Of a stretch of 64,000 bases of DNA, positions 2,177-7,903 are shown piece by piece. This DNA comes from an uncultured Steroidobacter sp. GTDB lineage: Bacteria; Pseudomonadota; Gammaproteobacteria; Steroidobacterales; Steroidobacteraceae. The stretch lies in NCBI GenBank assembly GCA_938008435.1, contig CALLKK010000016.1, positions 11,887 through 75,886 on the forward strand. Direction: 5' to 3'. The position numbers and the translations under genes were made by a program. Below the pieces are notes generated by a model, which searched no databases, had not been told where the DNA came from, and saw only the letters and a list, made by a program, of their open reading frames with translations. The stretch's first letter is position 1, and every line of letters starts with the position of its first letter.

Positions 2177-2797
2177 ATGCGCATCGTGCTCGCCACCAAC
2201 AACGCCGGAAAGTTGCGGGAGCTGCGCGAGCTGCTCGCACCCTTTGCGGTGGAGCTCTTGCCGCAATCGCGGTTCACGCGCGAGTCGGCCGAAGAGAACG
2301 GATTGTCGTTCGTCGAGAACGCGATTTTGAAAGCGCGCCATGCAGCGCGCGTCTCGGGGCTGCCGTCGATTGCCGACGATTCGGGCATCGAAGTCGATGC
2401 GCTCAAGGGCGCGCCCGGCATTTTCTCGGCGCGTTATGCCGGCGAAGGCGCGAGCGATGAAGCCAACAACCGCAAGCTCCTCGAAGCTTTGCGCGGCGTA
2501 CCGCTCGCAGCGCGGCAGGCGCGTTATCGCTGCGCGCTCGTGTTCATGCGCTGGGACACCGATCCGTTTCCGCTCGTGTGTCAGGCAAGTTGGGAGGGGC
2601 GCATCATCGACGTGCCGCGCGGCAACGGCGGTTTCGGCTACGACCCGATCTTCGAGCTGCCGGAGCGCGGCCTGACGGCAGCGGAGATTTCCGCCGAAGA
2701 GAAGAATTCGATCAGCCATCGTGGCAAAGCGTTGCGCGAGCTGGTCGAGCAGCTGCAACGCGCTGGAATCGTTCGATCGAGCGACGTCGCACGATGA
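2177..2797 (+). CDS. rdgB: dITP/XTP pyrophosphatase (HAM1 family)
   Basis: LATNNAGKLRE, ENAILKA, ADDSG, GFGYDPIF, SHRGKAL. Confidence 0.96.
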   Translation: MRIVLATNNAGKLRELRELLAPFAVELLPQSRFTRESAEENGLSFVENAILKARHAARVSGLPSIADDSGIEVDALKGAPGIFSARYAGEGASDEANNRKLLEALRGVPLAARQARYRCALVFMRWDTDPFPLVCQASWEGRIIDVPRGNGGFGYDPIFELPERGLTAAEISAEEKNSISHRGKALRELVEQLQRAGIVRSSDVAR

Positions 2798-3990
2798 GCG
2801 TGCCAACACGCGAGCAGGAGCGCAGCACGGCGCCGCTTGCGGCGCCGCGGCTGGTCGCGCCGCCACTCGCGTTGTACGTGCACATGCCCTGGTGCGTGCG
2901 CAAATGTCCTTACTGCGATTTCAATTCGCACGCCGCCCCTGCCCGCTTACCGCAGCGAGAATACGTCGATGCCCTCATCGACGATCTGATGCGCGATCTG
3001 CCGCTTGCCGAGGAGCGCCCGCTGATTTCGATCTTCTTCGGCGGCGGCACGCCGAGTCTGTTTGCGCCCGCTGAGATCGCGCGCTTCCTCGAGCGCGTGC
3101 GGGCGTCGATCCCTGTCGATGCGCTCGCCGAGATCACGCTCGAAGCGAACCCCGGCACCATCGAGCGCGGCATGTTCGCCGACTATCGTGCCGCCGGCAT
3201 CAATCGCGTGTCGCTCGGCGCGCAGAGCTTCAATGCGCGGCATCTGCATGCATTGGGCCGGATTCACGAGCCGCATGACATCGCACGCGCCGTCGACGAG
3301 CTCGTGCGTTGCGGGCTCGATAATTTCAATCTCGACCTGATGTATGCGCTGCCGGGGCAGTCCGTGGATGAGGCGCTGGCCGACATCGAGGCCGCGCTCG
3401 CGCTCGCGCCGAGCCACGTCTCGCACTATCAGCTCACGCTCGAGCCGGGCACCGTGTTCTATCACCGCCCGCCGCCGCTGCCTGATGCGGACACGGCGTG
3501 GGAAATGCAGCTGCGCTGTCAGGAGCGCCTCGCGCAGGCTGGCTACGAGCAATACGAAGTATCTGCGTACGCCCGCGGCGGGCGACGCAGCGTGCACAAC
3601 CTCAATTATTGGCGATTCGGCGACTACCTCGGCCTCGGCGCGGGCGCGCACGGCAAGCTGACGCGCGTGGCCGAGCGCACCGTGCTCCGGACCTCGCGCA
3701 CGAAACAGCCGCGGACTTATCTCGAAAGCGCGCCGGATCGCCGCGACGAGCGGCATGTCGTGCCGCCTGGCGAGGTGCCGTTCGAGTTCATGCTGAACGT
3801 CCTGCGCCTGCGGGAGGGGTTCGACGCAGCACAGTTCGAATCCCGCACCGGGCAACCGTTCGCGACCGTGCTCCCGGCGCTCGAACAGGCGCGCGGGCGA
3901 GGGCTGCTCGAGCGGGACGCTGCGGGGGCGTGGCGGCCGACCGAGCTCGGCTATCGCTTTCTGAACGACCTGCAGGCGCTCTTTCTCTAG
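2794..3990 (+). CDS. hemW: Radical SAM heme chaperone HemW (HemN-like)
   Basis: LYVHMPWCVRKCPYCDFNS (CxxxCxxC), IFFGGGTPS, EANP, YEVSAY, HNLNYW. ATG at 2794 overlaps the rdgB stop (ATGA). Conserved rph-rdgB-hemW order. Confidence 0.93.
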   Translation: MSVPTREQERSTAPLAAPRLVAPPLALYVHMPWCVRKCPYCDFNSHAAPARLPQREYVDALIDDLMRDLPLAEERPLISIFFGGGTPSLFAPAEIARFLERVRASIPVDALAEITLEANPGTIERGMFADYRAAGINRVSLGAQSFNARHLHALGRIHEPHDIARAVDELVRCGLDNFNLDLMYALPGQSVDEALADIEAALALAPSHVSHYQLTLEPGTVFYHRPPPLPDADTAWEMQLRCQERLAQAGYEQYEVSAYARGGRRSVHNLNYWRFGDYLGLGAGAHGKLTRVAERTVLRTSRTKQPRTYLESAPDRRDERHVVPPGEVPFEFMLNVLRLREGFDAAQFESRTGQPFATVLPALEQARGRGLLERDAAGAWRPTELGYRFLNDLQALFL

Positions 3991-4082: not shown

Positions 4083-4294
4083 TTATGCACATCGCGGAAC
4101 TCTTTTCACGCCGACGCCTAGTTGATGACAAAATCACAAGAGGCGCTTCAGGAGGCCTCTGTAACTTATTGATTGAAAAGGTAGAAATGGCCTGGTGAAA
4201 ATTTGACCAATCTGACGATCTCGCGGCATTACAGCATTTCAGGGCCGATTTGCCGCAAGTCATCCACACAGTTATCCACAGCTTTTGTGGATAA
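4083..4294. promoter_or_regulatory. DnaA-box cluster with IHF site (oriC- or DARS/datA-like candidate)
   Basis: TTATGCACA 4083-4091; TCATCCACA 4260-4268; TTATCCACA 4272-4280; TGTGGATAA 4286-4294 (reverse). TAACTTATTGATT 4162-4174 reads AATCAATAAGTTA on the minus strand, a perfect WATCAANNNNTTR IHF consensus. Lies in a locally AT-rich, gene-free interval. Confidence 0.72.
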
Positions 4295-4349: not shown

Positions 4350-4378
4350 TTGCGGGCGGCGCAATCGGCGGCTACACT
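4350..4378 (+). promoter_or_regulatory. sigma70 promoter of rpmE
   Basis: TTGCGG (4350-4355), 17 nt, TACACT (4373-4378), followed by a GC-rich discriminator (GCGCGCC) as in stringently controlled r-protein promoters. Confidence 0.6.
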
Positions 4379-4425
4379 GCGCGCCTTTTTCCGGAAGGGG
4401 CGCTCCGGCGCTCGGATGCATCATC

Positions 4426-4626
4426 ATGAAAGCCGGCATTCATCCCGAATACAAAGAGATCACGGTGACCTGCAGCTGCGGGAACACCTTCACGACCCGT
4501 TCGACCCTCGGTCACGACCTGCAGATCGAAGTCTGCTCGAACTGCCACCCGTTCTACACGGGCAAGCAGAAGATCGTGGACACCGGCGGACGCGTCGACA
4601 AGTTCCGCAAGAAGTACGCTCGCTAA
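4426..4626 (+). CDS. rpmE: 50S ribosomal protein L31, zinc-binding type A
   Basis: [22 protein letters not shown]...[26 protein letters not shown], with two CxC/CxxC pairs. Confidence 0.98.
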
Positions 4627-4654
4627 CTCGAGCGTCACGCGACGACTTGCAACG

Positions 4655-4682
4655 AAGGCGCCCACTGGGCGCCTTTGTTTTT
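4655..4682 (+). terminator. Rho-independent terminator after rpmE
   Basis: Stem AAGGCGCCC / loop ACT / GGGCGCCTT followed by TGTTTTT. Confidence 0.75.
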
Positions 4683-4857: not shown

Positions 4858-6336
4858 ATGATTCCGAGACTACGACTCCGCCACGCTCTCGCCATCGCCG
4901 CCGCCTGCGTCGGGTTGTCGAGCTGCGCGATGAACCCGGTAACCGGTCGGCCCGACCTTGTCCTGCAATCCGAGACGGGTGAGATCAATCGCGCCAAAGA
5001 AGTGCATCCGCTGCTGCTCCGGGAGTACGGCGGTCCCTATCAGGACATGCGCCTGCAGCAGTACGTGAACGAGGTGGGTCAGCGCGTCGCGAAGCTGAGC
5101 CATCGCCCCGAGCTGCAATACACCTTCACGGTGCTCGACAGTCAGGACATCAACGCCTTCACGACGGGCGGCGGTTATGTCTACATCACGCGCGGCATCC
5201 TGGCGTTTCTGAACTCCGAGGCGGAGCTCATGGCAGTGCTCGGCCACGAGATCGGCCATGTGACCGCGCGCCATCCGGTTCGCCAGCAGAGCCAATCGAC
5301 GCTCGCCAATATCGGCGCTGCCGCGGTGGGCGTGTTCACGGGCAGCGGCGATCTCGCGGGGCTCGCGAGCTACGCAGGAGCGGCGCTCATCCGCGGCTAC
5401 GGCCGCGAACAGGAGCTCGAAGCCGATCGGCTCGGCGCCGAATACCTCGCGCGCGTCGGTTTGAGCCCCGATCACATGATCGACGTGGTGCGGCTGCTCA
5501 AGAATCAGGAGCTTTTCGAGATCCAGCGCGCACGTGTCGAAAAGCGCGAGCCACGGGTCTATCACGGCGTCTTCTCGACACACCCGGACAACGATCAGCG
5601 TCTGCGCGAAGTCGTCAGAGCCGCCGAAAAGCTGCGCGCCGGCGATCGGCAAGAGGACCCGGGGCGCGAGCGCTTCCTGCAGGCGATCCAAGGGCTACCG
5701 TTCGGTACGAGCCGCGCGCAGGGCGTGCTGAGGGGCAACCGCTTCTATCACGCCGATCTCGGCATCACGCTCGCCTTCCCCACCGGCTGGACGATCGAAA
5801 ACCTCGCCGATCGACTCGTGGCGGTCTCGCCGCAGAAGGACAGCATTCTGCAGATGCAGACGATGGCACCGCCGCCGAATACCGCGCCGCGCGAGCTCTT
5901 GTCGCGGCTGCTCGTCGGCAGCGGCACGGCCAGTCAATCCCAGGCGATCGAGGTGAATGGCTTGCAGGGTCACACCGCGGTCGTGCGGGCCGCCAAGACG
6001 CCCTTCGGTGTGGCGCCGGCGCGCTACACGGTCATTTACCACAATAATCTTGCTTATATTTTTGCCGGAGCAAGCAAGGCTTCGAGCAGCGTTCCTGCAG
6101 CAGATCCGCTGTTTACGTCGACGATCAATACGTTCCGCCGGCTGCGGCAGAACGAGTTCGCGCTCGCCGAGCCGTATAAAATCCGGGTCATCCGCGCGAC
6201 CGAAAACACGCGGATCGCGGATCTCGCGAAGTCCTCGCCGATCAAGGAATATCCGGTCGAGACGCTCCGCTTGCTCAATGACCTCTATCCCGACAAGGAG
6301 CCGAAGCCAGGGCAGCTCATCAAGATCATCGAGTGA
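4858..6336 (+). CDS. M48 family zinc metalloprotease lipoprotein with C-terminal extension (LysM-like tail)
   Basis: Lipobox LSSC; NAFTTGGGYVYITRG; VLGHEIGH (HExxH); REQELEADRLG; STHP. Start placed at ATG 4858 (MIPRLRLR), downstream of the ORF-track start. Confidence 0.85.
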   Translation: MIPRLRLRHALAIAAACVGLSSCAMNPVTGRPDLVLQSETGEINRAKEVHPLLLREYGGPYQDMRLQQYVNEVGQRVAKLSHRPELQYTFTVLDSQDINAFTTGGGYVYITRGILAFLNSEAELMAVLGHEIGHVTARHPVRQQSQSTLANIGAAAVGVFTGSGDLAGLASYAGAALIRGYGREQELEADRLGAEYLARVGLSPDHMIDVVRLLKNQELFEIQRARVEKREPRVYHGVFSTHPDNDQRLREVVRAAEKLRAGDRQEDPGRERFLQAIQGLPFGTSRAQGVLRGNRFYHADLGITLAFPTGWTIENLADRLVAVSPQKDSILQMQTMAPPPNTAPRELLSRLLVGSGTASQSQAIEVNGLQGHTAVVRAAKTPFGVAPARYTVIYHNNLAYIFAGASKASSSVPAADPLFTSTINTFRRLRQNEFALAEPYKIRVIRATENTRIADLAKSSPIKEYPVETLRLLNDLYPDKEPKPGQLIKIIE

Positions 6337-6604
6337 CTCACCTTCGCGCGCTTGATTCGTTAGGCTCATCGTGTAAGTCTGCGCCTCCACCTCGCGGGGG
6401 CGCGTTGGAGGGCAGCTCCGCGGTTTCGGGCGCGGCTCGCTTGCGAGCCGACAGCCTGCTCGGCGGCAGCGCATCGCGCGCTTCGTCGTATCGCGGACCT
6501 CTCTCGCTGCCGGCGAGCCGCACCGAGCGATAGCTTCGAGATCGTGGCTGAGCCGCGGCGACGAGCCAGCGCTGCTTCGCATCACTTTTGGCTGGAACAC
6601 ACGC

Positions 6605-7903
<1,299 letters not shown>

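Follow-up and report, generated by a model that had tools for sequence, protein, structure and literature searches.

What is known of how chromosomal DNA sites (DARS1, DARS2 and datA) control the ATP/ADP cycle of DnaA comes almost entirely from E. coli. In DARS elements boxes I and II are arranged head-to-head, 5 bp apart, and in DARS1 box II matches the consensus perfectly (PMC6868365). The DARS1 core of E. coli K-12 (NC_000913.3), situated between bioD and uvrB, reads TTATCCACT-ATTCC-TGTGGATAA-CCA-TGTGTATTA or, when turned round, TAATACACA-3-TTATCCACA-5-AGTGGATAA, with box III placed head-to-tail outside box II behind a 3-bp spacer, and such spacings are expected to be kept among homologous or candidate elements. 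DARS2, located in the promoter region of mutH, depends on IHF and Fis and carries paired IHF sites about 195-225 bp beyond box I, as identified from the E. coli sequence.

The third site, datA, lies downstream of glyVXY in an origin-proximal position, is composed of box 7, box 2, an IHF site and box 3 with an IHF-induced loop, has all its essential boxes head-to-tail, the low-affinity box 7 being next to box 2, and acts on ATP-DnaA via head-to-tail contacts (PMC5742627). Its sequence reads box 2 (plus), 65 bp, IHF site TAACCTATTGATA (plus), 97 bp, box 3 (plus), 3 bp and an inverted box 4. On the protein side, Gln208 of DnaA is needed for DARS action in E. coli and is used together with Leu290 in the DARS reaction, and Arg285, Arg281, Arg334 and Leu290 are all used in the hydrolysis of ATP by DnaA oligomers (DDAH). 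To our knowledge, the head-to-head DARS complex is the only known function of a core in which two boxes of the same direction, 3 bp apart, are followed after 5 bp by an inverted box (->3->5<-).

In the literature on DARS-like sequences outside E. coli we found only predictions for the uvrB and mutH loci of Vibrio cholerae (PMC6090056) and a mention of unspecified "various bacterial species". We have not found a description of the rpmE-linked copy reported here, of its fixed partner sites at -177, -98 and -66, of a datA-like scaffold around a DARS core or of the class-wide prevalence of such a module. A literature search combining DARS with priA, rpmE, Pseudomonas and ChIP-seq returned no such loci; the candidate list of Fujimitsu 2009, which reportedly contains predicted DARS candidates in other species, lay outside its reach.

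The element studied here occupies the gap between a hemW-like gene and rpmE, for which an earlier note on the same DNA had weighed oriC against a DARS- or datA-like function. It is very probably a conserved control locus bound by DnaA and IHF rather than oriC. Its core copies the E. coli DARS geometry, so that a site controlling replication timing, not an origin, is its most likely identity, and we tentatively read it as a single-copy, DARS-type DnaA-reactivating locus built on a datA-like scaffold.

A box triad in the hemW-rpmE gap

The window, i.e. the whole stretch of 64,000 nucleotides that was analysed, corresponds to C16:11887-75886, C16 being the contig with the triad in an assembly of 3.6 Mb, 64% GC and 33 contigs. 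The gene-free gap measures 435 bp from the stop of the hemW-like gene (3990) to the ATG of rpmE (4426), in agreement with the earlier note, and each motif that the note had listed was recovered at its coordinates upon direct reading of the sequence. The features of the gap and its neighbours are:

2578-3990, plus strand: hemW-like radical SAM gene, upstream neighbour (Pfam Radical_SAM and HemN_C)
4083-4091, plus strand: distal DnaA box TTATGCACA, read from the sequence, 177 bp upstream of box III
4122-4129, plus strand: TTGATGAC block, kept among close relatives only (alignment)
4162-4174, plus strand: IHF consensus TAACTTATTGATT (YAAnnnnTTGATW on the plus strand), 98 bp upstream of box III
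4194-4208, no strand assigned: Fis-like motif GGTGAAAATTTGACC (pattern GNNNAWWWWWTNNNC), 66 bp upstream of box III
4260-4268, plus strand: DnaA box TCATCCACA, equivalent of DARS box III, head-to-tail with box II
4272-4280, plus strand: perfect DnaA box TTATCCACA, equivalent of DARS box II
4286-4294, minus strand: perfect inverted DnaA box TGTGGATAA, equivalent of DARS box I, head-to-head with box II
4350-4378, plus strand: likely rpmE promoter, TTGCGG (4350-4355), 17 nt and TACACT (4373-4378), outside the module and given for context only
4426-4626, plus strand: rpmE (ribosomal protein L31), downstream neighbour (Pfam Ribosomal_L31, E = 1.5e-35)

The three clustered boxes are separated by CAG (3 bp, between boxes III and II) and GCTTT (5 bp, between box II and inverted box I), so that the triad TCATCCACA-3-TTATCCACA-5-TGTGGATAA equals the DARS1 core in order, orientation and spacings. 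The earlier statement that DARS cores consist of three boxes of which one is inverted is thus correct and can be sharpened to III-3 bp-II-5 bp-inverted I. When the triad was compared by blastn with 5426 E. coli genomes, the best match was the DARS2 core between rppH and mutH (29 nt, 93%), a match that is weak on its own (E-value 0.9). The IHF site at 4162-4174 is, in reverse complement (AATCAATAAGTTA), a perfect WATCAANNNNTTR.

Like DARS1, the triad has a perfect box II, lies in a non-coding, promoter-proximal gap, occurs in one or two copies per genome and resides in a host that encodes Hda. It differs from DARS1 in several respects: the locus is not that of uvrB, all three boxes are near-perfect, and the downstream gene is found on the side of box I, whereas in DARS1 it is on the side of box III. 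Moreover, DARS1 needs no IHF, Fis-like or distal-box partners, while the triad locus has conserved ones. With DARS2 it shares the combination of a DARS core, an IHF site and a Fis-type site as well as the position of IHF about midway between two binding partners (PMC11724364). In DARS2, however, the partner across the bend is Fis rather than a DnaA box, and the element occupies a different locus. Unlike DARS2, the triad locus has a single IHF site upstream of box III, with the Fis-like site between IHF and the core. The predicted IHF and Fis sites are conserved and the corresponding genes are present, but the positions differ from those inferred in E. coli.

The box cluster of the gap far exceeds what is expected by chance. 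The whole 3.6-Mb genome contains 8 perfect TTATCCACA boxes and 122 boxes with one mismatch, and clusters of at least three boxes within 400 bp occur only twice, at the triad locus and in the dnaA-dnaN gap (C21:78834-79043). The ->3->5<- geometry is found nowhere else in the genome, even if four mismatches in total are allowed, and the ->5<- box pair of the triad is also the only one. Genome-wide there are 28 perfect matches to the IHF consensus and 38 to GNNNAWWWWWTNNNC; the gap contains one of each, 20 bp apart.

Conservation, flanking sites and distance from dnaA

In a comparison with 40 relatives selected by kinship, nothing in the gap except the triad aligned in other families (84-94% identity over about 35 nt). 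The pattern ATCCACA-N3-TTATCCACA-N5-TGTGGATAA is exact in 21 of 31 loci (30 relatives and the copy of the window), with diverged flanks. An oriented alignment of 22 loci, comprising the window and 21 close relatives, reveals islands of conservation in otherwise scrambled DNA, namely the distal box, the TTGATGAC block, the IHF site, a block starting with TGG..AAAAnTTGAnC and the triad. The distal box is kept in 21 of these 22 loci, the remaining one being N-masked there, and varies only at the degenerate fifth base (G, A or T). The earlier note had proposed the conservation of the hemW-rpmE interval in relatives as a check, and the triad, the distal box and the IHF site come through it.

A stringent triad pattern with 22 specified bases was then counted in wider samples with the reversed pattern as a control. 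Exact matches are present in 107 of 201 high-quality genomes of the order and in 63 of 151 sampled families of the class, the control giving 0 in both samples, and usually amount to one or two copies per genome. A scan of one genome per species returned at least 120 stretches; among the matches listed, nearly all belong to the Gammaproteobacteria in the broad sense, including Lysobacterales, Pseudomonas, Legionella, Nitrosomonas, Rhodocyclaceae, Woeseiaceae and Steroidobacteraceae. The DARS- or datA-like option of the earlier note therefore gains support from the exact geometry, the single-copy status and the wide conservation of the element.

The triad is found in several gene contexts. Among the matches listed, rpmE-linked copies occur in Steroidobacteraceae, Woeseiaceae and unclassified relatives, and other copies lie upstream of priA (23 loci), beside xseA (7) or after sbcB (4). 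As the same module accompanies unrelated genes, it is independent of its neighbours. Its orientation toward the downstream gene is nevertheless constant in the rpmE and priA settings: among the matches listed, rpmE begins on the plus strand 82-253 bp after box I (52 loci), and 22 of the 23 priA copies are on the plus strand, in most cases some 60-150 bp beyond box I. In E. coli, rpmE and priA lie side by side and diverge from one another, but the gap between them contains no triad, so no relic of the element exists there.

Several observations on the copies themselves may be recorded here. Triads of DARS geometry adjoin replication or repair genes in many lineages (priA, xseA and sbcB, and in E. 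coli uvrB and mutH). Many genomes of the class sample (e.g., G254, G360, G362, G374 and G278) carry two exact triads far apart, which can be compared with DARS1 and DARS2 of E. coli, and one genome carries four. A symmetric four-box version, III->II-><-I<-III', was recognized by overlapping forward and reverse pattern matches at G222:C105:11657-11693, G210:C45:124317-124353, G309:C17:18805-18841 and G327:C20:2909-2945. Finally, a contig labelled 'Candidatus Planktophila lacus', an actinobacterium (L047, CALQLF020000015.1), shows the gammaproteobacterial arrangement hemW-triad-rpmE and is probably mis-binned.

When loci are oriented III->II-><-I, the partner sites recur at constant distances, counted from the first base of box III. 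Offsets were tallied, among the matches listed, in close relatives (n=22), other rpmE-linked loci (n=30) and other gene contexts (n=92), the motif background amounting to a few dozen in total over 390 positions; the counts below are given in this order and apply to the matches listed.

About -177, same-direction DnaA box: 21/22, 24/30 and 19/92
-96 to -99, IHF consensus core (AANNNNTTGA): 18/22, 17/30 and 24/92
-66 exactly, Fis-like motif: 17/22, 16/30 and 17/92

The distal box ranges from -175 to -182 in the 24 of 30 rpmE-context loci outside the genus and from -177 to -180 in the 19 of 92 loci in other contexts, again among the matches listed. The offsets of -177, -98 and -66 recur in priA-context, xseA-context and other loci, with the IHF site at -97 to -99 in priA-context and other loci, and all three are kept across orders.

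Read from the distal box, the triad locus consists of a box (plus), 79 bp, the IHF site TAACTTATTGATT (plus), 98 bp and box III (plus). As in datA, same-direction high-affinity boxes (here at -177, 0 and +12) thus lie on either side of a single IHF site of the same orientation (-98), the spacing from IHF to the next box is nearly the same (97 bp in datA, 98 bp here), and an inverted box closes the cluster. Differences from datA concern the distance of the upstream box from the IHF site (65 bp in datA versus 79 bp) and the core, which in datA is ->3<- (box 3-box 4) versus ->3->5<- here. None of the essential datA boxes (PMC5742627) corresponds to the conserved box I, which is inverted and 5 bp away from box II, and the triad locus yielded no counterpart of the low-affinity box 7 of datA. 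Since the scaffold and the IHF site with its orientation resemble datA rather than DARS2, the triad locus can be described as a DARS-type core on a datA-like scaffold.

Since dnaA and the triad are on separate contigs of the assembly (C21 and C16), distances between them were taken from relatives only. They amount to 40-48 kb in three close relatives and, in all 22 genomes of the order that were sampled, to 56-212 kb with a median of about 86 kb. In the complete chromosomes of Pseudomonas antarctica, a Nitrosomonas genome and an unclassified gammaproteobacterium, the triad and dnaA are 34-36% of the chromosome apart, and origin proximity is therefore not a fixed property of the element.

Possible roles of the locus

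The trans-acting factors known from E. coli are encoded in the genome. Hda was identified at C11:62210-62884 (TIGR03420, 236.9 bits with a cut-off of 194.8), so that ADP-DnaA should be produced and the inactivation arm (Hda/RIDA) expected alongside a DARS is present. Fis is 60% identical to the E. coli protein over 72 residues, and IhfA and IhfB are 82% and 73% identical to theirs. DnaA is 69% identical to E. coli DnaA and keeps Leu290, Arg281, Arg285, Arg334 and the DNA-binding residues. The presence of these factors and residues speaks for a DARS-type locus, as do a core identical in arrangement to that of DARS1, its occurrence as the sole genomic site of this geometry, its wide conservation and the fixed offsets of its partners.

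On this basis the following sequence of events can be envisaged. DnaA would first bind the perfect box II, and further protomers would then be recruited to boxes I and III, those on boxes I and II meeting head-to-head. IHF, whose site is about halfway from the distal box to the core, would fold the DNA and so bring DnaA on the distal box into the core complex; the arm in between may be occupied by Fis. Once assembled, the complex would alter the nucleotide state of DnaA, which by analogy with DARS would most likely mean release of ADP, and this release would regenerate ATP-DnaA after Hda-dependent inactivation. The invariant ->3->5<- core tips us, with some hesitation, toward ADP release and regeneration of ATP-DnaA, a direction of effect that we infer from the DARS analogy.

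Several points weigh against the DARS-type reading. The residue corresponding to E. coli Gln208 is Gly in the DnaA of this genome (SERFVGDMV), in contrast to the host of DARS1, and a defining feature of the E. coli DARS mechanism is therefore absent. In five other triad-bearing lineages this position is Ala in two (including Pseudomonas antarctica), Gly in two and Gln in one, so that most of the other lineages checked carry Ala or Gly. The flank differs from that of DARS2, where the IHF sites lie about 200 bp off on the side of box I, and follows the box-IHF-box plan of datA. The distance of 40-212 kb from dnaA within the order is more in keeping with a site that, like datA, inactivates or titrates DnaA than with a reactivating one. 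Furthermore, of 52 box pairs with a similar arrangement in E. coli, only two turned out to be active DARS (PMC5835720).

Several of these points sustain the alternative of a datA-like negative control, in which ATP-DnaA oligomers formed across the IHF bend would hydrolyse ATP (DDAH), or DnaA would be titrated, soon after duplication of this origin-proximal region. The box-IHF-box spacings resemble those of datA, the triad is origin-proximal in all sampled genomes of the order and in the three close relatives, as datA is in E. coli (PMC5742627), and the residues Arg285, Arg281, Arg334 and Leu290 used in DDAH are kept. The scaffold, the position within the order and the lack of Gln208 thus keep inactivation or titration in play. 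We nonetheless consider it rather unlikely: the core carries the DARS signature and not the ->3<- of datA, and a box 7 counterpart was not identified. In addition, the Nitrosomonas genome, which has all three flanking sites (-168, -97 and -66), carries the element 34-36% of the chromosome from dnaA, and so do Pseudomonas and another gammaproteobacterium with the exact triad.

Reactivation, datA-like control, operator function and origin function need not exclude one another. One could even speculate, although we hold this to be doubtful, that the module of about 215 bp is an ancient, Gammaproteobacteria-wide switch of the DnaA nucleotide state which unites a datA scaffold with a DARS core and whose direction would be set by the occupancy of IHF and Fis and not by the locus. 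If so, the module may be the ancestral form from which datA and the DARS of E. coli were later specialised.

Less probable still is a DnaA-dependent transcriptional operator that would bring the gene behind it (rpmE here, priA elsewhere) into step with the replication cycle, IHF acting as an architectural co-factor. The constant orientation of the module toward rpmE (52 loci) and priA (22 of 23), among the matches listed, would fit such a role, and DARS1 and DARS2 likewise sit in the promoter regions of uvrB and mutH in E. coli (PMC5835720). However, the module stands at distances from rpmE that differ by a factor of about three and thus lacks a fixed phasing with the promoter. It is also shared by unrelated genes (rpmE, priA, xseA and sbcB), and neither an invariant ->3->5<- geometry nor a box 177 bp away is needed for an operator. 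Moreover, the predicted transcription start lies about 95 bp downstream of the centre of box I. With the -35 element at 4350-4355, the earlier placement of the triad 55-90 bp upstream of it is borne out, but the coupling of L31 expression to replication by DnaA that was suggested with it is not needed, the module being present upstream of unrelated genes and at 82-253 bp from rpmE.

As regards the origin, dnaA (C21:79055-80482, minus strand) and dnaN (C21:77736-78833, minus strand), both identified by Pfam, are located on another contig, where rpmH (L34) is readable just upstream of dnaA. The gap between them (C21:78834-79054) comprises 221 bp with 42.5% GC, includes a 40-bp stretch of 25% GC and four DnaA boxes within one mismatch of TTATNCACA, and is the canonical oriC candidate. 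The hemW-rpmE gap resembles an oriC of the Xanthomonas type, which occupies the dnaA-dnaN gap, in having DnaA boxes and an IHF-like site in fairly AT-rich DNA, but an element of that type exists separately in the genome, at C21:78834-79054. The lowest-GC 40-mer of the hemW-rpmE gap has 32.5% GC and coincides with the conserved IHF and Fis-like sites, and the gap does not show the combination of a box cluster with a strongly AT-rich unwinding element beside dnaA, dnaN or gidA that marks an oriC.

The absence of dnaA, dnaN and gidA from the window, as described earlier, holds, yet for gidA only narrowly: mnmG/gidA is found at C16:6266-7435, 8.7 kb upstream of the triad and 4.4 kb before the start of the window on the same contig. 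No DnaA box is present anywhere in C16:1-15968, which includes mnmG. The GC-skew analysis that had been proposed was run on C16 and C21 and, in windows of 2 kb and 5 kb, gave no sign change at the triad (about 16 kb on C16) and no clean change at dnaA; the first 16 kb of C16 likewise have no skew of opposite sign. Individual windows of 2-5 kb show |skew| values of no more than about 0.05, too weak to locate an origin or to decide the matter; as a clean change is missing even at dnaA, the skew counts as weak evidence only. The strand bias of long ORFs is unreliable for this purpose at 64% GC, where spurious antisense frames arise.

That the hemW-rpmE gap is the chromosomal replication origin, or a second one, is thus barely credible: it does unite DnaA boxes, an IHF site and a tract of 43% GC, 8.7 kb from mnmG/gidA and near the origin in relatives, but the canonical candidate with its four boxes and 25% GC stretch is the dnaA-dnaN gap, the least GC-rich part of the hemW-rpmE gap is taken up by IHF and Fis-like sites, the skew, weak as it is, does not change sign at the triad, and the distance from dnaA ranges from 40-212 kb within the order to about 35% of the chromosome in other lineages, with the same exact triad in three complete genomes. 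For origin-prediction tools this is a warning: DnaA boxes that cluster near dnaA in AT-rich DNA, together with an IHF site, need not be oriC.

Returning to the reading as a DARS-type locus, the triad module offers a sharply defined candidate for study, with a fixed internal geometry, usually a single copy and several gene contexts. It was found in roughly half of the genomes sampled from the order and in some 40% of the gammaproteobacterial families sampled. It opens the question of how DnaA is recharged or discharged in bacteria outside the enterics.

Minor features of the surrounding sequence

The hemW-like gene probably starts near 2870, since in tblastn the relatives match from about residue 100 of the open frame onward. 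A simple promoter scan made no call at 4350-4378, where the likely rpmE promoter is kept in relatives as CTTGCG...GCTACACTGCG. This sigma-70 scan gave one weak promoter-like match (4173-4202) inside the IHF/Fis-like block, which was judged not meaningful.

In the 5' leader of rpmE (4385-4425 in the window), the stretch CGCCTTTTTYCG is kept in relatives and could form a hairpin; it may represent an L31 autoregulatory leader, and an Rfam search of the gap, including the leader, matched no RNA family. A match to sraL at 4531-4681 was rejected as sub-threshold (26.9 bits against a gathering score of 39). It spans the 3' end of rpmE and a GC-rich hairpin followed by a run of T (about 4653-4682), which looks like an rpmE terminator and received no call from a simple terminator scan. 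Between rpmE and the citrate synthase gene, two ORFs on the minus strand (4870-5691 and 5695-6783) have no Pfam match and may be spurious in a genome of 64% GC.

Between the Fis-like site and the triad, the relatives L013, L017, L021 and L022 carry a 19-bp palindrome, AATGTGAC-N3-GTCACATT, at about -52 to -32 from box III. It corresponds to 4208-4228 in the window, where its right half is degenerate, and looks like a site for a dimeric regulator.
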